32,000 nucleotides of DNA from Candidatus Methanoperedens sp. (GTDB lineage: Archaea > Halobacteriota > Methanosarcinia > Methanosarcinales > Methanoperedenaceae). A program made the translations under genes and the position numbers. Shown one piece after another: positions 2,600 through 28,453 of the stretch (positions are counted from its first letter, which is position 1; every line of letters starts with the position of its first letter). A model generated the notes under the pieces. The model searched no databases. It saw only the letters and a list, made by a program, of their open reading frames with translations, and had not been told where the DNA came from. The stretch is taken from contig JBGQBI010000002.1 of NCBI GenBank assembly GCA_041494705.1, forward strand, positions 416,501 through 448,500, given 5' to 3'.

Positions 2600-2652
2600 A
2601 ATCCAAGAAACATTTAATACCTGTCAAACTATAAAACCCGCTGTCATACCGT

Positions 2653-2726
2653 GGACTCGTGGGGTAGCCAGGATATCCTAGCGGGCTTCGAACCCGCGGA
2701 CCCGCGTTCGAATCGCGGCGAGTCCG
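2653..2726 (+). tRNA. tRNA-Arg (anticodon TCG at 2688-2690), no encoded CCA
   Basis: Hand-folded cloverleaf. Acceptor GGACTCG/CGAGTCC, anticodon stem GCGGG/CCCGC with loop CTTCGAA, T arm CCGCG-TTCGAAT-CGCGG, discriminator G. An oligo-T run (2727-2732) follows. Confidence 0.9.
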
Positions 2727-3078
2727 TTTTTTAAACTGAAAGCTTGATAAACCGTCCCGAAGGGCTGTTCTCGCGGGTAGGCGCACATTCGCTTTTGCGT
2801 GCTCCCTTTAGGGCGGGGGCGCAATCGTCAGGATTGATTTTGATGGCTCTGTCTTGGCGCATATACAATAATTGACCGTTGATATTGAAGGATTGATTTT
2901 TATGAGATTAGTGTAAAGTTACAATGGTTTTTAGCTCTTAAATAATGGACATATTTATTAAATAATATTAAACAAATTTCTTTGTTAATGCCATGAATAG
3001 CTTTCTCATTCAATAAATTTAAATATTATTAATGTTAATGAAAACTCGTGGCTAACTTGAGATTGTAGAGGTTGAAAC

Positions 3079-3609
3079 ATGAGTTTAATAACTCAATTGA
3101 CGAATTCAGATATACCAATTGTCATTATCCTATTAGGTGCTCTTTTCCTTTATTTTGGATTTATTATAGGGAATACAAAAGTTTGGAAATCTGATAAAAT
3201 CGAATCTTATATAGAAGGTTTATTTTTCTTTGTTTTTTACATTTTTATTCCTTTTATTGCTTGTTTTTATCTCAGAGGTCAATTAAATGTTTGGTCTTTC
3301 TTATTAAATCCTATCTATATTCAAGTCGTTGTCTTACTTCAAGTCGCTGTCTTGTTATTTCAATTTGTTATCTTCAGCTTTCTTTCAACGGTCTTACAGG
3401 CACAGAGAATTAGAAGATATGAATTCGTTGATACAGGTAGAAATCAATTTGAAAAAATGATTAATGATTTTCCATTCATTGGGAGAATTATCAGAAGAAA
3501 TGAGAATTTGTATGATAAAGTTGAAACATTTTTTGAATTGTTTATCTACAAAATTCCGATTAAAATGGGGAATCGATACATACTTTTCATTTCTGACAAT
3601 CCTATTTAA
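3079..3609 (+). CDS. hypothetical multi-pass membrane protein (low-GC islet)
   Basis: 176-aa ORF with GAGGT 8 nt upstream of the ATG and several hydrophobic segments (IVIILLGALFLYFGFII, LFFFVFYIFIPFIACFY, VVVLLQVAVLLFQFVIFSFL). I recognise no family. Confidence 0.5.
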   Translation: MSLITQLTNSDIPIVIILLGALFLYFGFIIGNTKVWKSDKIESYIEGLFFFVFYIFIPFIACFYLRGQLNVWSFLLNPIYIQVVVLLQVAVLLFQFVIFSFLSTVLQAQRIRRYEFVDTGRNQFEKMINDFPFIGRIIRRNENLYDKVETFFELFIYKIPIKMGNRYILFISDNPI

Positions 3610-4183
3610 TTTCATATTATATGATTCACCAACTACCTTAGCATACGTCTCAGGAGAGCTATTGATTTTTGGATTCTCTCTGGTATTAAGTTTTTTTATA
3701 TTAACTTATGTGGCATCAGCGTATGGTTATAGTGATGTTGGTTATCGTTTCGTGAAAGTTTACTTGGTTGATAGTGAACCTATTCGGGGAAAAATGATGT
3801 ATTATGGAGAACTTGTTATCATACTAAAAAATGGGTATTTGTTTAGCTGGGACAGCATTCCAGAAAGCGGCAACGATGGGCTCATAGAATTTCTAAATCG
3901 ATATTTTGGTATTGAGTGGGTAAGAACGGCAAACATTGAAAAAAGCGATAATGGTAGAACCATAAAGTTATCTACTGAAAATAATTCTCTTTCGCTAATG
4001 CTTAACAATGAAAACACCAAGGTAAATCTAAAAATCGATGACGGTAGAAATGATGAATTTATGGTGAAGACAGAAAAAAGTAAGCTGAACATATACGAAA
4101 ATAAACGGATTTTGATAAATAAAGATAAAATCAATTATATTGAAGATAGTTTTTTTGAAACCGAAAAAGATAAAAATCTATAA
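3464..4183 (+). CDS. hypothetical membrane protein with soluble C-terminal domain; start uncertain, possibly a +1 frame continuation of 3079..3609
   Basis: 239-aa ORF overlapping the preceding ORF by 146 nt in another frame. TM segments (YFSFLTILFNFIL, LLIFGFSLVLSFFILTYV) are followed by a Lys/Asn/Glu-rich soluble part. No in-frame ATG lies between 3512 and about 3793. Confidence 0.4.
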   Translation: MIFHSLGELSEEMRICMIKLKHFLNCLSTKFRLKWGIDTYFSFLTILFNFILYDSPTTLAYVSGELLIFGFSLVLSFFILTYVASAYGYSDVGYRFVKVYLVDSEPIRGKMMYYGELVIILKNGYLFSWDSIPESGNDGLIEFLNRYFGIEWVRTANIEKSDNGRTIKLSTENNSLSLMLNNENTKVNLKIDDGRNDEFMVKTEKSKLNIYENKRILINKDKINYIEDSFFETEKDKNL

Positions 4184-4240
4184 GTTGATTTATTTAGTAA
4201 ATAGTTTTATAATTATTATTTGGTTCGATGATTTTCTTAT

Positions 4241-4972
4241 TTAATACGTCAATAATGCCTTCATTTTTGATATTACTTCATTCAAATCATTGGTTCTTTG
4301 TTCGACTATTGTGGCTTGGGTTTTGACTTGACCAGAAAGTGTAGCTTTTTTTATAATATTTGCTTGATTATATTGTGATATTAAGTTATTATATTGTGTT
4401 ACTGCATCATTATATTTAGATAACTGGTCATTATATTGTGTTAAAAGTTGTAGATATTCTTTAAATTGTTTGGGAGTATAAAAATTCCATCCTCTATAAT
4501 AACGTGGATTATCCGTGGAGTAAACTAAATATCCTCCTGTTGTTTCTAAAGCTAACCATTTATCGGCGGATACTTCTGCTAAAACCCATGCATGATTAGA
4601 TTCAAATAGCGTTGCATTATCTTTATCAACATTACCAATTTGAATTTTTGCATTAATTCCTCTAGTTTTTAACATATTCCAGACATCATTAGCCATATCC
4701 CCACATACAAAAATATCCTTTCCGTAATAAGTATGAGTTTGATGGTATTCCTCAACAACTTCCTTGCTAATTTGAATGTTCATCTCTTCTAATGTAGGTG
4801 TATGAGTTGGAGTTATTTGTGTAGGAATAGGAGTTAGTGTTGTAGTAGGCTCCGGTACTGTTTGCCTGTTTCCCGACAAGGACTTTATGGTAGTGTCGTT
4901 ACCTAAACAACCTGAAACAATAATTGCTAATCCAAAGATTGCTATAAATATAATCGATTTAAATTGTACCAT
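4241..4972 (-). CDS. secreted lipoprotein with transglutaminase-like cysteine peptidase core and C-terminal YN-heptad coiled coil
   Basis: Signal peptide plus lipobox (IIVSGC) and a Thr/Pro linker (PEPTTTLTPIPTQITPTHTPT). Candidate Cys-His-acid triad context: FVCGDMANDVW, NHAWVLAEV, WLALETT. The C-terminus has four YNxxxxx heptads. Confidence 0.6.
   Translation of the reverse strand: MVQFKSIIFIAIFGLAIIVSGCLGNDTTIKSLSGNRQTVPEPTTTLTPIPTQITPTHTPTLEEMNIQISKEVVEEYHQTHTYYGKDIFVCGDMANDVWNMLKTRGINAKIQIGNVDKDNATLFESNHAWVLAEVSADKWLALETTGGYLVYSTDNPRYYRGWNFYTPKQFKEYLQLLTQYNDQLSKYNDAVTQYNNLISQYNQANIIKKATLSGQVKTQATIVEQRTNDLNEVISKMKALLTY
4368..4451. repeat. 4 x 21-bp tandem repeat (TTATATTGTG core at 4368, 4389, 4410, 4431)
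   Basis: Exact 21-nt spacing of the TTATATTGTG/TTATATTTAG cores. On the minus strand it encodes the heptads YNDQLSK-YNDAVTQ-YNNLISQ-YNQANII of the lipoprotein. Confidence 0.8.
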
Positions 4973-5046
4973 AAATTTTAAAATGATTTTATTCCTAAAT
5001 AAAACTATTGTATCTTGGAATAAGTACGTTTACAATTTCCTATGCG

Positions 5047-8483: not shown

Positions 8484-8711
8484 ATGAATACAGTCAGAGT
8501 TAATATAACTTTACCTTCAGAAATCGCAGAAATGTTGAAAGATGTGAAAAATAAATCCGGTTTTATAGCGGAAGCAATACGGGATAGGATTGAGCGAGAG
8601 AAGAAAGCGTATCTTATAAGAGAATTAACCGAAGGCTACAAGGCAAGTAAACGGGAAGACAAACAGCTTACTGAAGATTGGGATGCAACTTCGGGAGATG
8701 GGATTGATTAA
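8484..8711 (+). CDS. ribbon-helix-helix (CopG-like) antitoxin
   Basis: 75 aa. The N-terminus VRVNITLPSEIAEMLKD fits an RHH beta-strand plus helix. AAGGTG lies upstream. It overlaps the downstream MazF gene by 14 nt. Confidence 0.7.
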   Translation: MNTVRVNITLPSEIAEMLKDVKNKSGFIAEAIRDRIEREKKAYLIRELTEGYKASKREDKQLTEDWDATSGDGID

Positions 8712-9042
8712 AAGGGGTGATATTTATTGGGTTAAACTTGACCCGATAGAAGGTTCTGAGATAGGAAAAATAAGACCTGCACTTGTTATTTCAAACGACA
8801 TTAACAATGAATTGGCAGATACGGTAACTATTGTTCCTATTACTTCAAACACAGGAAAGGTGTATCCTTTTGATGTTCTTGTACGTAAGGGAACTGCAAA
8901 TCTGACTGACGATTCCAAAATAAAGGCAAACCAGATACGAACTGTGGATAAAAGAAGGATAAGGGACATGATAGGCACAGTACCCCCAACCATTTTAGAA
9001 AAAATTGAAACTGCAATAAAGATTCATCTTGGTTTTAAATAA
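8698..9042 (+). CDS. mazF: MazF/PemK-family endoribonuclease toxin
   Basis: KRGDIYWVKLDPIEGSEIGKIRPALVIS..VTIVPITS is the classic PemK/MazF signature. I prefer the ATG at 8698 (MGLIKRGD) to the track start at 8683. Confidence 0.85.
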   Translation: MGLIKRGDIYWVKLDPIEGSEIGKIRPALVISNDINNELADTVTIVPITSNTGKVYPFDVLVRKGTANLTDDSKIKANQIRTVDKRRIRDMIGTVPPTILEKIETAIKIHLGFK

Positions 9043-10877: not shown

Positions 10878-11093
10878 GGGGCTGTGGCCTAGTCCGGCAT
10901 GGCGACGGGCTCCAGCGGAAAACCCCGGAATCCGGGGTGTGATGATGAGCAACGGGTCTGCCGAGCGAACCGGACGCGGTAAGCTGTGAGGAACCGTTGG
11001 AGCACTGAACGTGCTGCTCAAAGATTAAATCGCCAAAAACCTGGCGTTTTCGGAGAGACCCGTCGATCGTGAGTTCAAATCTCACCAGCCCCA
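10878..11093 (+). tRNA. tRNA-Trp (anticodon CCA at 10912-10914) interrupted by a 142-nt intron (10916-11057)
   Basis: Exons fold into a cloverleaf. Acceptor GGGGCTG/CAGCCCC, anticodon stem ACGGG/CCCGT, T arm GTGAG-TTCAAAT-CTCAC, discriminator A. There is a canonical bulge-helix-bulge: 3-nt bulge AG|C, central helix CUCC(10910-10913)/GGAG(11052-11055), 3-nt bulge AG|A. The outer helix is GGAAA/UUUUC. Both predicted cuts fall at position 37/38. Confidence 0.9.
10916..11057 (+). ncRNA. intron-encoded box C/D guide RNA predicted to direct 2'-O-methylation of C34 and C39 of tRNA-Trp
   Basis: C box GTGATGA (10939-10945, or ATGATGA 10942-10948). Guide ACGGGTCTG (10952-10960) lies before a degenerate D' box CCGA (10961-10964). 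C'-like box TGTGAGGA (10985-10992). Guide CCGTTGGAGC (10994-11003) lies before D box CTGA (11005-11008). By the N+5 rule the guides pair with positions 39 and 34 of this same tRNA. Confidence 0.75.
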
Positions 11094-11524: not shown

Positions 11525-11610
11525 ATGAAAAAACTTTATGAAAGTTTTATCAAAAGAAGGGGTATGCGCAGCATACCCCTATACCGCATAAAGCGAGGTG
11601 TCGCTTTATG
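11525..11610 (+). repeat. mosaic hairpin element, copy A (modules H7-H2-H1) forming the argH leader
   Basis: H7 is AAAACTTT-atg-AAAGTTTT (11530-11548). H2 is GGGGTATGC-gca-GCATACCCC (11559-11579). H1 is CATAAAGCGA-ggtg-TCGCTTTATG (11587-11610), whose last three bases are the argH ATG. The same modules recur at 19250-19447 and 20327-20403, and H7 also at 27166-27298. Confidence 0.85.
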
Positions 11611-13086
11611 AATATACTAAGGCGAGGTCGTCTCCAGGTCAAACAGGATGAAGACATAATGCGGTTCACATCGTCAATGGAAGCGGACAAACGGATATTC
11701 GACGCTGATATTGACGTGGATAAAGCCCACGTTGTCATGTTAAAAGAGCAGGGCATCATAAAGGAAAGCGAATGCTCAACCATCCTCTCAGGTCTTGAAA
11801 AGATTCAAAAGGAAGGAATTTCCGCTCTTGATGCCTCGTATGAAGATGTCCACATAGCCCTTGAGGCCCGGCTTATTGAACTTGTGGGCGAGGATACGGG
11901 AGGGCGCATGCATTCCGGGCGTTCGCGCAACGATGAGGTCGCAACATGCATACGCATCGCGCTGCGCACGGAACTTGCATTCCTTCTGGAGGAAGTTCAT
12001 ACACTTGCCGCAACGCTTGTCAAAACAGCAGAAGAACATCGTGAAACCATTATGCCCGGATACACCCACACCCAGCACGCCCAGCCAACCACGCTGGCCC
12101 ATCACCTGCTGGCGCATGCAAACGCGCTTTCGCGCGACATTGAAAGGATAAAAGCGGCTTTTGGTCACACGAACCAGAACCCTCTTGGTGCTGCCGCATT
12201 TGCTTCAACCGGCTTTCCCATAAACAGGGAAAGGACAACGGAACTCCTCGGGTTTGACTCTGCACTTTCGAATTCCATGGATGCCGTAAGTACCCGCGAT
12301 TTTATGATAGAAAGCTTAAGCTCCTTCTCCAATTTGATGACGGACTTAAGCCGCATGGCTGAAGAATTTGTCCTCTGGAGTTCATCCGAATTCGGTTTTA
12401 TCGAGCTTGATGACAGGTATTCATCCACATCGTCCATAATGCCGCAAAAGAAGAATCCCGATATTGCGGAACTTTTGCGCGCAAAGACGGGAACGGTTCA
12501 CGGCGCCCTCATGTCTGTTTTAACTATCTGCAAGGCGCTTCCGTACAGCTACAACCGCGACCTCCAGGAGGCAACGCCTCACCTCTGGCGCGCCGCCGAT
12601 ACAGTTCGAGCTTCTACGCGTATGGCAGAGGGCATGGTCAGTACAATGAAAATCAAAAAGGAAACGATGAAGCTTGCATCAAACACAGGATTCATGACTG
12701 CAACAGAGCTTGCAGATACTATTGTCCGGGCAACAGGCATCCCTTTTCGGACTGCGCATCATATCGTGGGCTCAATCGCAAAGACAGGAAAAAACCCCAC
12801 TCTTTCCCTGCTGGATGAAATTTCATTAAAGATCCTTGGGGAAAAATTAAGCGACATGGGACTTTCTGAAAAAGCCGTTAAAGAAGCTCTTGACCCTCTG
12901 GTAAACATAAGAAAACGTACAGTCTCCGGAGGACCTGCTCCCAAAGAGATAAAGCGACAGATAGCCGTAATCAAGAAAAAACTTGCTGGAAGCGAGAACG
13001 ATATTAAAGTTATTAATAACAAGATTAATAAAGCAAAAGAAAAACTTGCCCTGGTTTGCGAGCAACAATTTAAGAAAACGATATGA
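11608..13086 (+). CDS. argH: argininosuccinate lyase
   Basis: 492 aa with GRMHSGRSRNDEVATCIR, the fumarate-lyase signature SSIMPQKKNPD and YNRDLQE. Confidence 0.95.
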   Translation: MNILRRGRLQVKQDEDIMRFTSSMEADKRIFDADIDVDKAHVVMLKEQGIIKESECSTILSGLEKIQKEGISALDASYEDVHIALEARLIELVGEDTGGRMHSGRSRNDEVATCIRIALRTELAFLLEEVHTLAATLVKTAEEHRETIMPGYTHTQHAQPTTLAHHLLAHANALSRDIERIKAAFGHTNQNPLGAAAFASTGFPINRERTTELLGFDSALSNSMDAVSTRDFMIESLSSFSNLMTDLSRMAEEFVLWSSSEFGFIELDDRYSSTSSIMPQKKNPDIAELLRAKTGTVHGALMSVLTICKALPYSYNRDLQEATPHLWRAADTVRASTRMAEGMVSTMKIKKETMKLASNTGFMTATELADTIVRATGIPFRTAHHIVGSIAKTGKNPTLSLLDEISLKILGEKLSDMGLSEKAVKEALDPLVNIRKRTVSGGPAPKEIKRQIAVIKKKLAGSENDIKVINNKINKAKEKLALVCEQQFKKTI

Positions 13087-14198: not shown

Positions 14199-15329
14199 TT
14201 ATTTCGTTTTATTCAGTAAATTTGAGATAAAAAGGATTACCAGCATTAGCACGACTATTAAACCCAGCACCAAAAGCATTGAAGATACAACATCTTTTAT
14301 GGTACTTTTTACCGGCGTTTCCTTAATTTCCGGTGTCCCAGTTGGCGTTGGAGTTGGTGTAGTTATGCCCGTGGCTGTCGGTGTAGGAGTTGGCGATGGT
14401 GTAGTCGCTGCAGATTTTGGCAGGTTCAATACCCTGATTGTTTGATTTCCCTGGGGATTAATATCTACAAAAAGGATTTTAGTACCATCCCTGCTCCACA
14501 TTGGATTTAGCTGCCTGAAACCATCCTTAAAAAGAAGTTTTTTCCCTGAACCATCGGGGTTAATGATAAATATTTGCTGACCGCTTGATGCTGCGGTTTC
14601 ATAAGAAACATACAGGATACCATCATGACCCCAGTCCGGGTCAGATTTTTTGAGACCATCGAACGTAATCTGCTTTTTGCCGCTGCCATCGGCATTGGCT
14701 GTGAAGAGCTGTTCGATATATGTGCTGTCATATGAAACATATACAAAGGAGTTCCAATCCGGGCTCCACTCCGGGTTCCACTGCCTGAATTCATCGGTTA
14801 TTACCTGCTTTTTCCCGGTCCCGTCAAGATTGACCTGGTATATCTTTTCATTTCCTGCCGCATCAAAGGAGGTAAATAGTACCGTTTTTGTCTTCGGGTT
14901 CCATGAAGCGCCGCCAAGGGCCGGCGGTTTGTCCTCAGGCGCCCTTCCCTGGCGGGTCTTATCATCGAGGAGCTTTCTCAAACCAGAGCCATCCGGTTTT
15001 ACAAGAAAAATCTTTTCCAACCCGTCAGTGCCATAAGAAATAAAAGAAATGTCATCATCAAACCATGCCACGCCCCATTTTTTAATAGTATCGTTCGTGA
15101 CCTGTTTTTTCCCGGTGCCGTCAACGTTTATCGTGAAAATCTGTTGTCTCCTGGAATCATCATAAGCAACATAGGCTATGGAATTGCCGTCCGGACTCCA
15201 ATCAAGGCTGAATATTAATGTTTCATTGGTCTGGATAACAGAGGAACTCTGGATATTCACGTCAGCCGATACAGGAACCGAAAATAATGATAACAATGCA
15301 AGACAAATTATTAAATATGATACTTTCAT
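14199..15329 (-). CDS. surface-anchored TolB-like beta-propeller (PD40/WD40-like repeat) protein
   Basis: Signal-like N-terminus (MKVSYLIICLALLSLFSVPVSA) and repeated DGSGKK/DGTGKKQ..W.P.WSPDG units. A Pro/Thr linker (PSPTPTPTATGITTPTPTPTGTP) is followed by a C-terminal TM helix. I prefer the ATG at 15329 to the track start at 15359. Confidence 0.7.
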   Translation of the reverse strand: MKVSYLIICLALLSLFSVPVSADVNIQSSSVIQTNETLIFSLDWSPDGNSIAYVAYDDSRRQQIFTINVDGTGKKQVTNDTIKKWGVAWFDDDISFISYGTDGLEKIFLVKPDGSGLRKLLDDKTRQGRAPEDKPPALGGASWNPKTKTVLFTSFDAAGNEKIYQVNLDGTGKKQVITDEFRQWNPEWSPDWNSFVYVSYDSTYIEQLFTANADGSGKKQITFDGLKKSDPDWGHDGILYVSYETAASSGQQIFIINPDGSGKKLLFKDGFRQLNPMWSRDGTKILFVDINPQGNQTIRVLNLPKSAATTPSPTPTPTATGITTPTPTPTGTPEIKETPVKSTIKDVVSSMLLVLGLIVVLMLVILFISNLLNKTK

Positions 15330-15405
15330 AATACCCAACACATAGTTATCTATACACAATGATAAATGTTACGATGCCGGTGTCTTTTTTTTTCAGAAAG
15401 TCATG

Positions 15406-18448: not shown

Positions 18449-19252
18449 TTAATCCTTTTGGTGAATCCCCAGCACATCAGCCATCTCATATACGCCAGGC
18501 TTTGCCGAACAAATCCAGATAGCCGCTCTCACAGCCCCTTTTGCGAAAGCCTGCCTGCTATGCGCCTGGTGCTTGATTTCGATGCGCTCACCGTCGCCTG
18601 CGAATAATACCGTATGGTCGCCCACAATATCGCCGCCGCGTACTGCATGTATCCCGATTTCCTGCTTTCGGGGTGAAAGACCATGCCTGCCGTATACAAG
18701 CTCTTTCCCTCCGAGCGTCTTTGAAATAACTTCCGCTGCTTTCACGGCTGTACCGCTTGGCGCATCCTTTTTCTGGTTATGGTGGGCTTCTATTATTTCG
18801 ATATCATAATCTGAAAGGCTCTTTGCAGCCTCGGCAAGAAGACCCCAGAAGACATTTACACCAATTGAGAAGTTGGGTGAAATAACCGCCGCAACTCCAT
18901 TTTCTTTGATTGCCTTTTCCATGAGCGATTTCTGTTCAGGGGTGAAACCCGTAGTCCCGACAACCAGATTGACCTTCTTACCTGCGCTTGCAATTACGTT
19001 CTTCACGGCTGCATTAGCTATTGTAAAATCAATAAGCACATCGGGTTTTGACCTGTCAAGGGCTGCATCGATTTTATCTGCATCCTCGATCTGGACATTT
19101 AGTTTGCCTGTCCTCATCACTTCGCCAATGTCTTTTCCAATATTAGTTACATCCAGGGCGCATACAAGTTTCAAATCCTTTGATTTCAGGATATTTTCGA
19201 TAATAAGCCCGCCCATTCTCCCGCAGGCGCCGGTGACCGCTATTTTTATCAT
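18449..19252 (-). CDS. dapB: 4-hydroxy-tetrahydrodipicolinate reductase
   Basis: 267 aa with MIKIAVTGACGRMG, GTTGF and IIEAHHNQKKDAPSGTA. Confidence 0.95.
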   Translation of the reverse strand: MIKIAVTGACGRMGGLIIENILKSKDLKLVCALDVTNIGKDIGEVMRTGKLNVQIEDADKIDAALDRSKPDVLIDFTIANAAVKNVIASAGKKVNLVVGTTGFTPEQKSLMEKAIKENGVAAVISPNFSIGVNVFWGLLAEAAKSLSDYDIEIIEAHHNQKKDAPSGTAVKAAEVISKTLGGKELVYGRHGLSPRKQEIGIHAVRGGDIVGDHTVLFAGDGERIEIKHQAHSRQAFAKGAVRAAIWICSAKPGVYEMADVLGIHQKD

Positions 19253-19447
19253 AAAGGGTTACGCCCCTTTAGGACATCCCGAGTCACGCCTCGGGAGGGC
19301 GTGTCCGGGTATGGCGCGCCATACCCGTCGTTTGAAAAGCGACACCTCGCTTTATGCGGTATCCACGTATGCCTGTGGGCATACGTGTCTGCGAAGTAAA
19401 GCGGCGCAACGGTTTTTGATAAAACTTTTCCAAAGTTTTTCATAAGC
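19250..19447 (-). repeat. mosaic hairpin element, copy B (H7-H5-H1-H2-H4-H3 read on the minus strand) filling the entire dapA-dapB spacer
   Basis: H3 is TAAAGGG/CCCTTTA (19252-19271). H4 is TCCCGAG/CTCGGGA (19277-19296). H2 is the 22-nt perfect palindrome CGGGTATGGCGCGCCATACCCG (19306-19327). H1 is AAAGCGA-cacc-TCGCTTT (19336-19353). H5 is CACGTATGCC-tgtg-GGCATACGTG (19364-19387). H7 is AAAACTTT-tcc-AAAGTTTT (19421-19439). The dapB ATG (19252-19250) lies next to the H3 stem. Confidence 0.85.
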
Positions 19448-19450
19448 AAC

Positions 19451-20326
19451 TCACTTTATCAGATGAAGGTTATCCAATGCGGCTTTTAGCTTTCTTTCGT
19501 TATCTTCGCTTATTGAGGCAAGCGGAAGCCGCAGGTGCCCGGCCGGGAATCCGATAAGCTCGACCGCCTTTTTGATGGGAATAGGATTGGTCTCCAGAAA
19601 TACCGCGCGAATAAGAGGAGCCAGGGCAAGATGCAGTCTTCGTGCTTCATCCAAATCTCCTCTTTGGAACGCTTCGACCATGGAAACCGTGAGCTTCGGG
19701 GCGACATTAGCGACAACAGAAATTACACCAGCGCCGCCCAGCGCCATTATGGGAAGCGTCAGGCCGTCATCGCCAGACAGGATAACAAAATCCTCATCCT
19801 GCGTCATCTCGATAATACGTGTAACCTGGTCAAGATTGCCGCTTGCTTCTTTTATCCCAACTATATTGCTTTCTTTTGCCAATTCAGCGACAATTTCAGG
19901 CTTGAGATTGATACCTGTCCGCGAAGGGACGTTATACATTATCATGGGTATGTCAACCTCGTTTGCAATCTTCTTGAAATGAGCAAGCATCCCGCGGTCA
20001 TTGGGTTTGTTATAATAAGGAGTTATTAAAAGAGCCGCATCCGCTCCTGCATCTTTTGCGAATCTTGTAAGCTCTATTGCCTCTGTCGTATTATTCGAGC
20101 CCGTGCCTGCTACGACAGGAACAGTCGAACACTCAACAGCAATTTCAATGACATGTTCATGTTCCTCGATAGAAAGGGTTGCCGATTCCCCGGTAGTCCC
20201 GCATGGAACGATGCCTGAAACGCCGTTTTCAATTAAAAATCCGATATTCTGCTTAAAGCCCTGTTTATCTATCTTATTATCCTTTGTGAAAGGAGTTATA
20301 AGGGCAGGCAGAACACCTTCAATCAT
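19451..20326 (-). CDS. dapA: 4-hydroxy-tetrahydrodipicolinate synthase
   Basis: MIEGVLPALITPF..GTTGESATLS..YNVPSRTG. The track ORF is extended 22 codons upstream from a TTG at 20392 through the repeat element. I prefer the ATG at 20326. Confidence 0.95.
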   Translation of the reverse strand: MIEGVLPALITPFTKDNKIDKQGFKQNIGFLIENGVSGIVPCGTTGESATLSIEEHEHVIEIAVECSTVPVVAGTGSNNTTEAIELTRFAKDAGADAALLITPYYNKPNDRGMLAHFKKIANEVDIPMIMYNVPSRTGINLKPEIVAELAKESNIVGIKEASGNLDQVTRIIEMTQDEDFVILSGDDGLTLPIMALGGAGVISVVANVAPKLTVSMVEAFQRGDLDEARRLHLALAPLIRAVFLETNPIPIKKAVELIGFPAGHLRLPLASISEDNERKLKAALDNLHLIK

Positions 20327-20403
20327 AAAGCGATACCTCACTTTATGCGGTCTGGGGTATGCTTCGCATACCCCTCGTTTGATACTTTCCAAAGTATTCC
20401 ATA
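20327..20403 (-). repeat. mosaic hairpin element, copy D (H7'-H2-H1) filling the rps17e-dapA spacer
   Basis: Plus-strand coordinates. H1 is CATAAAGCGA-tacc-TCACTTTATG (20324-20347) and includes the dapA start codon. H2 is GGGGTATGC-ttc-GCATACCCC (20354-20374). H7' is ATACTTT-cc-AAAGTAT (20382-20397). Confidence 0.85.
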
Positions 20404-20407
20404 GTCC

Positions 20408-20608
20408 CTATCTCTTTCTGATAGCTTTTACTCTTAACTGGCGTACTATGTATCCTGCAACGCGGTTCCTTATTCCCTTGGCCTCTACGGTGGTATATTT
20501 AGTGACGTACTCTTTGTTCTGGTTAAAGTCCGTGGTGAAAATGTCACTATGCTCTTCAAGTAACTGGTGTCCCAATGATTTGATGTATCCGGGTCTAATA
20601 TTTCCCAT
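20408..20608 (-). CDS. rps17e: 30S ribosomal protein S17e
   Basis: MGNIRPGYIKSLGHQLLEEH...NRVAGYIVRQLR matches archaeal/eukaryotic S17e. The ATG at 20608 is preferred to the longer track ORF. Confidence 0.9.
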   Translation of the reverse strand: MGNIRPGYIKSLGHQLLEEHSDIFTTDFNQNKEYVTKYTTVEAKGIRNRVAGYIVRQLRVKAIRKR

Positions 20609-20728
20609 AATTATTCTCCATTTTGGTGTGCATACAACTCCATCATTCATATAGATTTCTGGGGATGCATCGTGCGGCTAAGCCAATAGAACCACAGATT
20701 TATTTTATCTGAAACCTATTTTGCTATA

Positions 20729-21564: not shown

Positions 21565-22026
21565 ATGATAATAAACTTCCAGCTTACCAACGTGGAATCC
21601 AAGGCATATACCACGACCGAGGATGTGCGGAAATACAAGAACATCAATATCAATTATGACGTGAATCTTAAAAACCCCTCGATTGTAGTGCAGCATACGC
21701 CTCTTGGTGAAAAATCGGTGCTGAGGGTGGAGTACACTTTTGCCATCAATTACCTGAGCCCGAATATCGGTCACATAAGGTTTGAGGGTTTGTCCGATTA
21801 TTACAGCGAGGAAGACCTGAAAGCCCTGAAGGAGAAATGGGATTCTGGGAATGCGCCGGGCGATGTGCAGAACGAGATTGCAAATACCATGGTGGCGAAT
21901 CTTGCGCCGCTGGCATTGATGCTTTCAAAAGCGCTCGGGCTTCCGCCTTCGATGCCTGTTCCTGTGATTAATTTCCAGCAGGCTCAGCAGAAGAAAAAGG
22001 AAGAGCCGACGTATTATCACGGGTAG
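21565..22026 (+). CDS. hypothetical protein (weak SecB-like resemblance)
   Basis: 153-aa ORF. The beta-rich N-half and the C-terminus ...NLAPLALMLSKALGLPPSMPVPVINFQ loosely recall SecB-family chaperones. This is from memory only. Confidence 0.4.
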   Translation: MIINFQLTNVESKAYTTTEDVRKYKNININYDVNLKNPSIVVQHTPLGEKSVLRVEYTFAINYLSPNIGHIRFEGLSDYYSEEDLKALKEKWDSGNAPGDVQNEIANTMVANLAPLALMLSKALGLPPSMPVPVINFQQAQQKKKEEPTYYHG

Positions 22027-22332
22027 GGCAGCGTCTATTTTTTAGTATAGGCTTTTCTGGAGGATGGATTGGTTACAATCCGGTTCCAATCTTAAAATAG
22101 CACTCAAAAATCAACATATAATTATAATTTTTGTTTATACAATGATAGATGATTTTTTCGATTGATTACCTCTACCTATTTTTATATTTTTATATTAGAT
22201 TTCAATAATTAAAAACGATAGCAGTAAAAATTTATAGTAAGTTTTAAATACTATATGGTATTATATGACAATAATATTTCACAGGAGGAAATATTAGTAT
22301 CTATCGATTTATCTGAAAAGGGTGAAAATATT

Positions 22333-22770
22333 ATGAAAAAGGGAATATTTGTACTATCGATGATTTTAGTGGCTGTATTGATTGCTGGTTGCGTAGGAAA
22401 AGGTCCTGTAAGTCTTGATTTAGACAAAACAAGTGTGACCGTCAATAAGAATAATAACAACACTTCTGAACTTATTACAGCAACAATAACCAGAAATGAC
22501 AATGATAATAGAGATGCCAGTTTTGTATTAAAGTTTCCAGATGAAAAGAATAGTGTTTATCCAGTTGATAGTAGTAACGGTAGTAGAATAAAAGAATTAC
22601 GAACCAGATCACTAAAAGGGGAAAATTCAAAAGATATCCGACAATTTAAGATATACGGTAATAAAGGTGAGGCAGATAAATCAGATTTCAATTTAAAAAT
22701 TGAACTTTGGTGGGATAATAATACAAAAATAGCTGACCAGGACAAAATACTTACAATTACAGTCGAGTAA
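22333..22770 (+). CDS. small secreted lipoprotein, low-GC islet
   Basis: Internal ATG at 22333 preceded by GGTGA. Signal plus lipobox MKKGIFVLSMILVAVLIAGC. The mature part is Asn/Asp/Lys-rich. Confidence 0.55.
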   Translation: MKKGIFVLSMILVAVLIAGCVGKGPVSLDLDKTSVTVNKNNNNTSELITATITRNDNDNRDASFVLKFPDEKNSVYPVDSSNGSRIKELRTRSLKGENSKDIRQFKIYGNKGEADKSDFNLKIELWWDNNTKIADQDKILTITVE

Positions 22771-22877
22771 TCCTTGCCCTTGCCAATGAGCAGGGTTTGG
22801 ATTTCTCCCCTTTGTTTTAAGGATTTTCTTTAAAAAAAATACTGTAACGCTTCAAATCGTGTTTAAATCTGTTTCCA

Positions 22878-23120
22878 TTATTTTCCCGAAAAGACTTTGA
22901 GTCCAACTTTTCCTAAATATGCAACAAGCCCCAAGATAAACAATATTACACCAATAATTATTCTGGTTTCATTGACCTCTGAAACACCTGTAGCCGTTAT
23001 TGGGCCTGCTGTAAGCGTCGCCAACGCCAAACCCGACATGGGAAGAGCTGACAGGATTGCTGCGACACCGGCTATCATTACAATCATCCCGAATATTTTT
23101 AGTGGGTCTCTCTTTGTCAT
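22878..23120 (-). CDS. small two-TM membrane protein
   Basis: About 80 aa with two hydrophobic helices (IFGMIVMIAGVAAILSAL, IIIGVILFILGLVAYL). The track start is a TTG and the ATG is at 23120. Confidence 0.4.
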   Translation of the reverse strand: MTKRDPLKIFGMIVMIAGVAAILSALPMSGLALATLTAGPITATGVSEVNETRIIIGVILFILGLVAYLGKVGLKVFSGK

Positions 23121-27047: not shown

Positions 27048-27165
27048 TGCCTACACCCATGAATGAAATACTTGAAAAGTGTTTCTATTTAAACGCATAA
27101 TCCTTCACAACATGAACTAATCATAGATAGATTTTATCTTTTATGTTCATTTCGGGAAAATCATT

Positions 27166-27298
27166 CATAAAGGGTTACGCCCCTTTATGACGTCCCGAGT
27201 CACGTCTCGGGAGGGTATCCACGTATGCCTGTGGGCATACGTGTCTGCGAAGTAAAGCGGCGCAACGGTTTTTGATAAAACTTTCTTAAAGTTTTTCA
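27166..27298 (-). repeat. mosaic hairpin element, copy C (H7-H5-H4-H3), immediately after the dapL stop
   Basis: Near-identical to copy B, but it lacks the 60-nt H1+H2 cassette (19300-19359 in B). H3 here is the perfect CATAAAGGG-ttacgc-CCCTTTATG (27166-27189). H7 is AAAACTTT-ctt-AAAGTTTT (27277-27295) and abuts the dapL stop codon (27296-27298). Confidence 0.85.
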
Positions 27299-28453
27299 AA
27301 TATCCAGTTTTCGCATTCGTTCAACCGCTTCATTTATCCTTTCTACAGGCTGCGTCAGGGCAAACCTGACATACCCTTCGCCGGATTCACCAAAACCCAC
27401 GCCCGGCGTGGCAACTATCCCTGCTTTTTCAAGAAGCATCTTCGCAAATGCCGAAGAGCTGCCGTTTACATGCACCCAGACATAGAACGTGGCTTTCGGG
27501 GGTTTAACGGGAAGCCCAAGGCTCTTCAGGCCGACAAGAAGCGCATCCCGCCGTTCCCTGTATATCAGGTTCGTTTCGCGGACGCAATCCTGGGCACCGG
27601 AAAGGGCAGCGATGCCGGCTTCCTGTACAGCTTCGAATGCGCCTGAGTCCACGTTTGTTTTTACTTTTCCAAGACCGGATAGTATATCGCTGTTGCCGAC
27701 CGCAAAACCGAGTCGCCAGCCGGTCATATTATATGTTTTTGACAGGGAATGCACTTCAATGCCCACGTCCTTTGCCCCGCTGGCATTGAGGAAACTGGGC
27801 GCCTTGTAACCATCGAAGGTCATTTCCGAGTATGCATTATCGTGAATCACTATGATTTCGTTTTCATTTGCAAAATCCACCACTTCCTCAAAGAATTTTA
27901 TTGAAGCCGTAGCCGAGGTGGGATTATTGGGATAATTGATAAACATGAGTCTTGCTTTTTTTGCGATATTGGCTGGAATGGCGTCAAGGTCTGGAAGGAA
28001 ATCGTTCTCAGAAAGCAGTGGCATCTTGAAGGGTTTGCCATTCGCGAGTATTGAGCCGATGTTGTAAACTGGATATCCCGGGTCTGGAACAAGTGAAATA
28101 TCACCGGGGTTTAAGAATGCAAGCGGGATATGGGCTATCCCCTCTTTTGAACCTATGAGCGTGAGAACCTCGTTTTCAGGGTCAAGGTCAACGTTCATGG
28201 TCTTTTTGTACCATTGGGCTGCCGCTCTTCTAAAGGACAGCATTCCCTCATACGACGGATAACGATGGCGGGCAGGATTATCGAGGGATTTTTTCATGGC
28301 TTCCACGATATGCGGCGGAGTAGGTAAATCAGGGTCGCCTATGCTCAGGTTAATGACATCCACGCCTTTCTTAACAGCCTCGGCTCTTGCTTTGTCGATG
28401 GCTGCGAATAAGTAAGGGGGCAATGAATTTATCCTGTCGGCGTAGGTGACCAT
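27296..28453 (-). CDS. dapL: LL-diaminopimelate aminotransferase (DapL-type, class I aminotransferase)
   Basis: 385 aa with RINSLPPYLFAAID, INLSIGDPDLPTP, the PLP-lysine context SLSKTYNMTGWRLGF, and YVRFAL at the C-terminus. The function call rests on family resemblance and on the dapA/dapB context. Confidence 0.75.
   Translation of the reverse strand: MVTYADRINSLPPYLFAAIDKARAEAVKKGVDVINLSIGDPDLPTPPHIVEAMKKSLDNPARHRYPSYEGMLSFRRAAAQWYKKTMNVDLDPENEVLTLIGSKEGIAHIPLAFLNPGDISLVPDPGYPVYNIGSILANGKPFKMPLLSENDFLPDLDAIPANIAKKARLMFINYPNNPTSATASIKFFEEVVDFANENEIIVIHDNAYSEMTFDGYKAPSFLNASGAKDVGIEVHSLSKTYNMTGWRLGFAVGNSDILSGLGKVKTNVDSGAFEAVQEAGIAALSGAQDCVRETNLIYRERRDALLVGLKSLGLPVKPPKATFYVWVHVNGSSSAFAKMLLEKAGIVATPGVGFGESGEGYVRFALTQPVERINEAVERMRKLDI

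Follow-up and report, generated by a model that had tools for sequence, protein, structure and literature searches.

Mycobacterial interspersed repetitive units (MIRUs), reportedly described by Supply et al. in 1997, are short interspersed units that run in the direction of the neighbouring genes, occupy start codons and intercistronic junctions and contain an internal open reading frame (ORF) with a stop codon overlapping the downstream start (-4). Their insertion with a -4-coupled ORF was proposed to be nearly neutral for expression (review PMC12548453), and long junctions contrast with junctions of a few bases among mycobacterial species (PMC2734929). In this study, a chromosomal segment of 32,000 nucleotides from Candidatus Methanoperedens sp. 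(GenBank assembly GCA_041494705.1, contig JBGQBI010000002.1, positions 416,501 to 448,500; this whole stretch is referred to as the window) was analysed. It harbors four chains of palindromic modules, located in the argH leader, in the dapA-dapB spacer (the focal chain), in the rps17e-dapA spacer and directly behind dapL, each on the sense strand of the flanking genes. The four spacers probably (estimated probability roughly 0.7) hold copies of a dispersed, recently mobile family of modular palindromes, which persists at stop/start junctions as a relay upstream open reading frame (uORF) coupled at -4.

Compared by organisation with the descriptions of MIRUs, the chains share the features named above, including the junctions of a few bases in related species. 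They differ from MIRUs, which are tandem direct repeats of one 40–100 bp unit (variable number tandem repeats, VNTRs), in being mosaics of at least nine modules, mostly palindromic hairpins, in their archaeal host and in a terminal module with a Shine-Dalgarno-like loop and an ATG hidden in the stem. A VNTR nature was ruled out, since the program TRF detected no tandem array at any of the four window sites and the chains are mosaics of different palindromic modules. [quoted passage not shown] An earlier note on this DNA had missed that the chains are stop-free frames coupled at -4 and that MIRUs were already known as a bacterial analogue (PMC12548453). Its statement that no described archaeal equivalent was known to its author agrees with the literature searched here, in which no description for Methanoperedens, Methanosarcina or other archaea was found; the Borg tandem-repeat paper deals with a different kind of repeat.

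Reading frames of the chains

The frame analysis comprised 31 chains running from an NTGA to one of the terminal hairpins F or E (modules in Table 2). In 28 of these, the frame beginning at the 5' ATG (GTG or TTG in three) is free of stop codons up to the TGA overlapping the terminal ATG. The open frames are 27 to 90 codons long and of 13 distinct lengths (84–273 nt); the other frames of these chains contain 0 to 7 stops. Tested against an expectation of 1/3, the length residue modulo 3 gave P = 6e-11 by chain, P = 2e-8 by independent locus (22 of 25) and P = 1e-4 by distinct length (13 of 16), binomial values that overstate independence because the chains share ancestry.

Related chains differ in length by multiples of three. 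One difference of 60 nt is due to the F-b unit that distinguishes the focal chain from the dapL chain and another of 60 nt to an H-containing insert in the argH leader of locus L067 (retrieved loci are designated by L and a number). Within uORF chains, hairpin D can harbor a nested A-B-C unit, which accounts for 78 nt; a 77-nt A-B-C unit plus an ACGT repeat nested in G accounts for 81 nt and a deletion in L111 for 150 nt. Free A-B-C units mostly measure 77 nt, with few of 78–79 nt. The uORF of the focal chain (Table 1) is translated as MKNFGKVLSK...KGRNPL*; its internal copy of F carries TTCA in place of ATGA, so that the frame stays open. The chain behind dapL is open over 44 codons from the TTGA containing the dapL stop codon and is followed by merely a 15-codon ORF. 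An exception is the rps17e-dapA chain, the uORF of which ends at a TAA within F, 16 nt before the dapA ATG.

The terminal hairpins close most frames. In E, the three frames meet a TGA at -4, a TAA in the loop (+6) and a TAA in the 5' arm (approx. +16), respectively. Terminal F has the same TGA at -4 in the first and a TAA in the 5' arm (approx. +16) in the third frame, and its second frame reads in-frame into the gene. Hairpin B is translated in three frames (RRGMRSIP, EGVCKAYP and EGYAKHTP), which argues for a constraint on the frame and not on the peptide, and the F/E end always reads ..L* in register. RPEs are likewise mobile palindromes surviving in translated sequence by keeping the frame open. 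They insert in-frame within genes and join the protein, whereas the chains, with a net insertion congruent to 2 mod 3, constitute uORFs separate from the gene, each with a stop of its own that overlaps the start of the gene.

Open frames of 27 to 90 codons with start and stop might also be genuine genes for a family of small modular proteins. When the 64-residue focal peptide was compared to 5.8 billion proteins, 39 called ORFs were found in public annotations, all of them unnamed or termed 'hypothetical protein [Candidatus Methanoperedens sp.]'. They comprise at least 30 module architectures, and nearly all begin with MKNF..LSK and most end with ..IKGRNPL or ..IKRGVAL. None of the 39 contains a Pfam domain, and an exhaustive search of 1.8 billion representative proteins returned only 17 clusters, two of them unrelated repeat proteins; a small-protein family was rejected on these grounds. 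Conservation at the nucleotide or palindrome level, translation of one module in differing frames in different chains and ORF ends set by the start codon of the neighbouring gene also make protein-coding genes a very unlikely explanation.

Junctions and flanking genes

The identities of the genes flanking the chains were confirmed by profile matches (Table 1). The four sites with shared modules given in the earlier note were found again with slightly corrected coordinates. The gap between the upstream stop codon and the chain start is 0–7 nt in the window, within the 10 nt stated there, and three of the four chains terminate in CTTTATGA, the ATG of which serves as gene start, again as claimed; NCBIfam profile alignments begin at residues 1–4 of dapB, dapA and argH (residue 1 for dapB).

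The 5' TGA is the stop codon of an upstream gene of 175–879 codons in 11 of the 31 chains, which indicates that the element split an ATGA-overlapped gene pair, e.g. RpoA'/RpoA'' in L089. In approx. 7 further chains the upstream gene ends 4–12 nt before the 5' ATG, and approx. 14 chains have a Shine-Dalgarno-like motif at most 20 nt upstream of it. At the other end, the terminal ATG of 27 of the 31 chains opens an ORF that has at least 50 codons or runs off the contig. The dapL chain begins with TTGA and ends with ATGA; hence the 3' ATG was brought by the element. The copies at argH are promoter-proximal. Here, the F loop GAGGTG is located 7 nt before the ATG in the argH leader; the conserved CCUCC of the 16S rRNA 3' end is complementary to this loop.

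Table 1. Positions of the chains, their modules, neighbouring genes and further features. Numbers refer to the window unless a locus is named.
Feature	Positions	Strand	Description
Chain 1	11525-11611	+	argH leader, modules A-B-F; 28-codon uORF, TGA 11609-11611 overlapping argH ATG 11608-11610
Chain 2 (focal)	19249-19443	-	dapA-dapB spacer, modules A-H-G-F-b-D-E; 64-codon uORF, ATG 19443-19441, TGA 19251-19249 overlapping dapB ATG 19252-19250
Focal A	19415-19439	-	hairpin AAAACTTTnnnAAAGTTTT plus ATCAAA tail, directly after 5' ATGA
Focal H	19387-19412	-	linker CCGTTGCGCCGCTTTACTTCGCAGAC
Focal G	19365-19386	-	hairpin ACGTATGCCnnnnGGCATACGT, -17.1 kcal/mol
Focal F (internal)	19333-19356	-	CATAAAGCGAGGTGTCGCTTTTCA
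Focal b	19307-19326	-	hairpin GGGTATGGnnnnCCATACCC, -16.1 kcal/mol
Focal D	19277-19301	-	hairpin TCCCGAGnnnnnnCTCGGGA
Focal E	19250-19273	-	3' terminal hairpin C(A/T)AAAGGGGCGTAACCCTTTATG; dapB start codon inside stem
Chain 3	20324-20402	-	rps17e-dapA spacer; 19-codon uORF, ATG 20402-20400, TAA 20345-20343, dapA ATG 20326-20324
Chain 3, A	~20377-20399	-	degenerate
Chain 3, B	20354-20374	-	
Chain 3, F	20324-20347	-	
Chain 4	27165-27299	-	directly 3' of dapL, modules A-H-G-D-E; dapL stop codon 27298-27296 in 5' TTGA, 3' ATGA 27168-27165
argH	11608-13086	+	
dapB	18449-19252	-	
dapA	19451-20326	-	
rps17e	20408-20650	-	
dapL	27296-28453	-	
L111	1875-1922		chain remnant
L020	1479-1527		chain cut off after hairpin B
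L094	789-837		chain cut off after hairpin B
L198	2936-3381		Y1_Tnp
L081	1577-1967		Y1_Tnp, truncated
L197, L199	3001-3396		Y1_Tnp
L026	3480-3700		Thermoplasmata repeat
L071	250-480		Thermoplasmata repeat
sR3 (RF01133)	10938-11010	+	C/D-box small RNA, 50 bits, E = 8e-10
MazF/PemK-type toxin gene	8683-9042	+	Pfam E = 1e-33
tRNA-Arg(TCG)	2652-2727		
AT-rich island	2652-5000		region including the tRNA gene; island GC 0.30; 21-nt tandem repeat 4367-4443
Second AT-rich stretch	21565-23000		GC 0.31; ORFs 21565-22026 and 22255-22770
56-nt direct repeats	14658-15145	-	three diverged copies within ORF 14199-15359

Modules and chain organisation

Nine modules were defined by fuzzy patterns (Table 2), and 103 chains were catalogued across the retrieved loci, with 159 instances of module A. 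The order of the modules is invariably A..(H,G)..B..(C|D|F|E), and in practically every one of the 103 chains the directional modules lie on a single strand. Module A directly follows an (A)TGA; internal positions are taken by B or b, G, H, D and nested A-B-C units, and F, E or C, the last bases of which are YTTATGA, form the end. Two classes are present. Chains at genes have an (A)TGA before them, an F/E end (..CTTTATGA) and a gene after them, and all four window copies were assigned here. Free units are A-B-C elements of 77 nt in non-coding DNA, usually within the 23-mer AAACCGCAGATGAACGCAGATTT. The earlier note had likened the spacers to a REP/BIME-like mosaic tied to start codons; both the mosaic and the link, to start as well as stop codons, were supported. 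It had also described the 198-nt focal spacer as a chain of six hairpins, which are indeed present, together with one non-palindromic linker (H).

Table 2. Patterns and types of the nine modules.
Module	Pattern	Type
A	AAAMCTTTnnnAAAGKTTTATCAAA	5' hairpin
B	GGGGTATGCnnnGCATACCCC	internal hairpin
b	GGGTATGGnnnnCCATACCC	B variant
C	..AARCCGAAGTTTCGGYTT	terminal hairpin
D	..TCCCGAGGCGTGACTCGGGA	internal hairpin
E	CATAAAGGGGCGTAACCCTTTATG	terminal hairpin
F	CATAAAGCGAGGTGTCGCTTTATG	terminal hairpin
G	ACGTATGCCnnnnGGCATACGT	internal hairpin
H	CCGTTGCGCCGCTTTACTTCGCAGAC	non-palindromic linker

In two loci (L020 and L094), the chains are cut off after hairpin B and seemingly fused to coding sequence. 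The ATG within hairpin B (GGGGTATGC) is a possible start codon in these fusions.

Distribution and empty sites

A collection of species-representative genomes was scanned for hairpin B (GGGGTATGCnnnGCATACCCC), which gave at least 108 matching stretches. Among the matches listed, approx. 85 fall into 20 Methanoperedens-type assemblies, one of them Ca. M. nitroreducens ANME-2d; there are several stretches per genome and up to approx. 19 in one metagenome-assembled genome (MAG). The remaining ones listed are single bacterial matches attributable to chance. Within the reach of these scans, the hairpin family is confined to Candidatus Methanoperedens. A different chain-of-hairpins repeat was seen in the Thermoplasmata MAG QQ_201709_bins_14 (L018, L026, L044, L071 and L075). 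It shares hairpin B and a stem similar to AAACCTTT/AAAGGTTT, and adjoins a tRNA-like end in one case. Carriage by viruses, plasmids or phages was rejected, as three pattern scans of IMG/VR gave one chance match inside a gene (L192) and blastn searches against PLSDB and INPHARED gave none.

One metagenome scan with DapB yielded 80 loci (460 kb), 79 of which carry no module, with L111 as the sole carrier. The dapA-dapB spacer is 4–18 nt long in relatives with 76–88% DapB identity and is replaced by an ATGA overlap in more distant ones; the ancestral junction without a chain is TGAgttgagtATGA. In L117, the junction reads aagTGAgttgagtATGATAAAAATAGC, compared to aagTGAgttgcttATGA and TAAAAATAGC separated by 191 nt in the window, which identifies the focal chain as 191 nt inserted precisely at the dapB start ATGA. 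The rps17e-dapA junction comprises 4–11 nt and lacks the element in L111, L113, L117, L120 and L123. L111, the relative with the most similar DapB (97%), retains just 45 nt of the chain (ATGAAATATCCCCAATACGTCCTAAAGGGGCGTAACCCTTTATGA), a remnant encoding MKYPQYVLKGRNPL*, a 14-codon uORF overlapping the dapA stop and the dapB start, and is devoid of the rps17e-dapA element although the more distant genome L084 has one. The empty dapA-dapB and rps17e-dapA junctions and the L111 remnant constitute a presence/absence polymorphism at orthologous sites, as is typical for MITEs.

The argH leader element occupies the same position before argH in four genomes (the window, L007, L029 and L067). It is identical at 84 of 87 positions between the window and L007, with identities of 76% for the argH proteins and 47% for the third codon positions. 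This may reflect purifying selection, gene conversion between the copies or insertion that occurred repeatedly at one ATGA.

Most carriers are MAGs and the chain in L019 contains an N-gap, as would be expected if the chains were an artefact of assembly or binning; chance accumulation of palindromes would be a related explanation. The window is 100% identical over 11.2 kb to the JGI contig Ga0534157_0000001 (2.07 Mb) and 99.99% identical to NCBI JBGPSC010000036.1, identical sequence was obtained in independent JGI, NCBI and Logan assemblies, and the family is present in at least 20 assemblies from different studies. Moreover, the RNA folds of the focal spacer (z = -5.7 compared to dinucleotide shuffles) and of the argH leader (z = -7.7) were not reached by any shuffle. 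The likelihood of an artefact or of chance is therefore negligible.

Downstream genes

All four window copies touch dapA, dapB, dapL or argH. The earlier note had stated that every dap gene of the window touches a copy and no other spacer does, and this holds within the window, where blastn-short with seven family queries detected no chain beyond these four; chains were also not found in the 9.5 kb to the right and 2.2 kb to the left of it. The association has no significance outside, given the 79 of 80 dapB loci without module and the 16 unrelated downstream gene families preceded by chains elsewhere. Among these downstream genes are those for CobS, a BcrAD/BadFG ATPase, an HhH-GPD glycosylase, a PUA protein, radical SAM enzymes, an AP-endonuclease-fold protein, Rpo4, RpoA'', TfuA, acetolactate synthase, TrkA, RNase P Pop5, a class III aminotransferase, DsrE, a MarR-like protein, an EMC3/TMCO1-like protein and a dTDP-sugar isomerase, the latter in L191, where the chain is located between an NTP-transferase gene and the isomerase gene.

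A leader or attenuator specific for lysine and arginine, common to the dap genes and argH and based for example on a leader peptide rich in both residues that senses charged tRNA, would be in line with the position of the window copies and with the high content of Lys and Arg in the uORF peptides. It is contradicted by the empty dapA-dapB and rps17e-dapA junctions of relatives, the dapB loci without module and the presence of the same chains in front of genes such as those for CobS, RNA polymerase subunits, RNase P Pop5, TrkA, TfuA and radical SAM enzymes. Furthermore, the reading of B in three frames leaves no conserved peptide, and no Rfam family matches. Such a leader is refuted as far as sequence allows and is highly improbable. 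A pathway-specific regulator in general was ruled out by the empty orthologous sites and the diverse downstream genes, and the dap/arg association of the window copies is coincidental. The functions suggested in the earlier note were retained in part: a mobile leader cassette and translational gating come close to what the data suggest, in contrast to the link to the lysine/arginine pathway.

Folding and covariation

Among single hairpins, A is the least stable with -4.8 kcal/mol and B the most stable with -17.2 kcal/mol; B, b, G, D, F and E, with values of -12 to -17 kcal/mol, are found in dozens of copies in the sampled loci. In the terminal hairpin F (-13.4 kcal/mol), the AUG is paired in the stem and GGUG is located in the loop. 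The double changes cited in the earlier note as stem covariation are present. Pair 4 of the module A stem is A-T in 49 copies and C-G in 18, and pair 3 of the module C stem is G-C in 10 and A-T in 7 with zero mismatches. In a formal pair count, the covariation score was above all 500 shuffles, yet just two pairs vary on both sides, and these two compensatory positions probably stem from few events. Stem mismatches are G-T in 22 and A-C in 25 cases, i.e. without an excess of G-U wobble pairs on the sense strand. The B loop is present in both complements in sense-oriented chains (GAA 15, TTC 13), and the A loop is directional. The mismatch balance and the B loop fit a palindrome at the DNA level better than a constraint on RNA only. 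The covariation argues little for RNA structure, and an RNA-specific structure signal was rejected because G-T does not exceed A-C and only two positions are compensatory. The Rfam search of the window with gathering thresholds returned sR3 alone, elsewhere and with no family at the chains, which rules out a known RNA family.

The main rival of the relay uORF is a cis-regulatory RNA device recruited by the host, which would set translation, mRNA stability or processing in operons, with mobility as a mere means of spread. Terminal hairpins gating a start codon, or hairpins blocking exonucleases as REPs do, would be examples. The high stability of the hairpins, the sequestered AUG in F and E with the Shine-Dalgarno motif in the loop and the double changes preserving stems at two positions are consistent with this, as are the four genomes with an occupied argH position and the near identity (84/87) of the argH leader element across lineages with saturated synonymous sites. 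On the other hand, presence and absence vary among close relatives at essential biosynthetic genes, the downstream genes are unrelated, and one copy, the dapL chain, has no gene behind it. The missing G-U excess and the B loop in both complements, which indicate a palindrome at the DNA level, also disagree with such a device. A recruited regulatory role is thus considered distinctly unlikely.

Mobilisation

The direct repeats flanking the elements are not uniform: (A)TGA where a gene starts, 0 nt within hairpin D, ACGT within G and 7–8 nt within the 23-mer. Free 77-nt A-B-C units are found in this 23-mer at two fixed positions and orientations (L021, L024, L025, L031, L033, L037, L039, L062, L081, L091, L106 and others). 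A repeat of at least 6 nt flanks 17 of 22 A-B-C units, compared to a mean of 4.8 in permuted partners; this was not counted as proof of a classical target-site duplication, since the significant repeats sit in pre-existing heptamer doublets of the 23-mer. The uninterrupted 23-mer occurs in 27 copies in 21 loci, none of them in the window, and variants with the heptamers CACGGAT or CACAGAG exist. The ends of the A-B-C unit share only AAAMC...GKTTT (approx. 5 nt), and two 28-nt ends match at 11 of 28 positions.

With an approximate IS200 TnpA sequence as query, tblastn gave one match, located in L081 and consisting of a truncated Y1_Tnp at a distance of 74 nt from an A-B-C unit. Of the stand-alone Y1_Tnp (PF01797) family, 87 relatives were found, many from Methanoperedens. 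In L198, the 23-mer is located 45 nt upstream of the Y1_Tnp gene and therefore appears to be the left end of this IS200-type element; in L081 it is split by the A-B-C unit, followed by the truncated Y1_Tnp. A conserved hairpin (CCCCGTA..TACGGGGTATAGTGAC) lies 3' of the Y1_Tnp genes. Modules A to H were not detected within 3 kb of the three intact Y1_Tnp genes examined. The partner similar to REP-associated tyrosine transposases (RAYTs), which the earlier note had proposed to look for, may thus be represented by the abundant Y1_Tnp family with its truncated copy next to an A-B-C unit, but none of the three intact genes is flanked by modules. A hairpin-recognising Y1/HUH transposase of the IS200 type is the leading candidate for the mobilising enzyme, an assignment that is tentative and rather doubtful.

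REPs and BIMEs, which are associated with RAYT transposases, resemble the chains in their imperfect palindromes of 20–40 nt with G+C-rich stems, in the varied mosaics between operon genes with many copies per genome and in the abundance of the Y1/HUH transposase family in the same genus, here Methanoperedens. Unlike BIMEs, which alternate in orientation, all modules of one chain point one way. The chains have no conserved tetranucleotide of the GTAG type, are locked to NTGA start/stop codons and to the reading frame, and are without a Y1 gene flanked by modules among the three intact ones examined. Prokaryotic MITEs (e.g. Correia, ERIC, Chunjie and Sulfolobus SM1-4) are reviewed in PMC10969869. 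Like these, the elements are small, multicopy and strain-polymorphic, encode no transposase and often have short direct repeats at the 77-nt A-B-C unit (17/22); Chunjie sets a precedent in that it enters an operon and leaves it intact. Apparent differences are the terminal inverted repeats of just approx. 5 nt (AAAMC/GKTTT; 11/28 identity), the range of the flanking repeats from 0 to 8 nt and the modular, frame-constrained structure, and no autonomous parent, i.e. an insertion sequence with the same ends, was seen in the window or in 1.3 Mb of retrieved loci. Palindrome-associated transposable elements (PATEs), derived from IS200/IS605, have in common with the chains subterminal hairpins without real terminal inverted repeats, a strict orientation and an apparent insertion beside a short fixed sequence, (A)TGA, with which the element itself also ends. 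Methanoperedens has many Y1_Tnp genes of the IS200 type, and A-B-C units are preferentially found in the 23-nt motif that appears to form the left end of these IS200-type elements. In contrast to PATEs, the left flanks of nested and free A-B-C units are not TGA, and the chain ends show no sequence similarity to the ends of the Y1_Tnp elements examined.

A bolder interpretation would be an unrecognised class of archaeal mobile elements, for which a Y1/HUH enzyme of their own would mediate movement in the form of single-stranded hairpin DNA. They would be equipped with a universal terminal stop-and-restart module, and the host possibly recruited them as a genome-wide, hairpin-gated tuner of operon stoichiometry. 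The terminal module would close nearly every frame within 16 nt of the element-borne ATG, with one frame of F as exception, and present a Shine-Dalgarno motif in its loop, and the stop-free internal modules would allow the element to colonise NTGA junctions of essential operons. This interpretation is regarded as unlikely.

Proposed mode of action

According to the reading of the chains as relay uORFs, the element, inserted at the NTGA of start codons or of stop/start overlaps in operons, supplies a new 3' ATG and Shine-Dalgarno motif. The displaced original start codon, or the stop/start overlap of the upstream gene, opens the stop-free frame through the chain. Ribosomes arriving from the old ribosome-binding site, or coupled from the upstream gene, could then translate the chain and melt its hairpins, including the terminal one sequestering the ATG, terminate at the UGA and reinitiate at the overlapping AUG (-4 coupling), assisted by the Shine-Dalgarno-like GAGGTG exposed in the F loop. 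Such a relay might render the insertion nearly neutral, with the consequence that copies survive precisely at gene starts. Termination-reinitiation coupling at -4 operates in archaea according to Huber et al., as cited in PMC12548453. The family would be selfish rather than recruited.

Several points weigh against the relay. Translation of the uORF and its coupling to the gene are predicted from sequence, frames +2 and -1 are also stop-poor, and the shared ancestry of the chains affects the binomial tests. An end at +6 or +16 instead of -4 is seen in the rps17e-dapA copy and in three further chains. Since the dapL chain is open without a gene behind it, openness is at least partly inherited from source copies and not selected per site. 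The conservation of the argH leader element could indicate a host function instead of selfish neutrality. With respect to mobility, no transposase is encoded among the 30 scanned ORFs of the window, no modules surround the three intact Y1_Tnp genes, and a target-site duplication is not established, as the flanking repeats vary in length (0, 4 or 7–8 nt) and many are in heptamer doublets.

The chains would be the first archaeal counterpart of the MIRU strategy, made of palindromic modules instead of tandem units, and filled, empty, shortened and lengthened junctions at the same genes provide dozens of natural experiments on archaeal -4 coupling. They account for a class of spurious 'hypothetical proteins' in Methanoperedens annotations and caution against reading such spacers as pathway-specific regulators. 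In this genus, of interest for its anaerobic methane oxidation and giant extrachromosomal elements, the chains also offer markers at the strain level.

Other features of the window

Further features of the window are listed in Table 1. The C/D-box small RNA sR3 is encoded in a long non-coding stretch upstream of the argH leader. The tRNA-Arg(TCG) gene is followed by an AT-rich island with three ORFs without Pfam match, which may be an integrated element. Upstream of the MazF/PemK-type toxin gene, a small ORF is called in L001/L193, and both probably form a toxin-antitoxin pair. The two ORFs of the second AT-rich stretch have no assigned function. The 56-nt direct repeats on the minus strand correspond to PD40/beta-propeller repeats of the encoded protein and lie outside the hairpin family.

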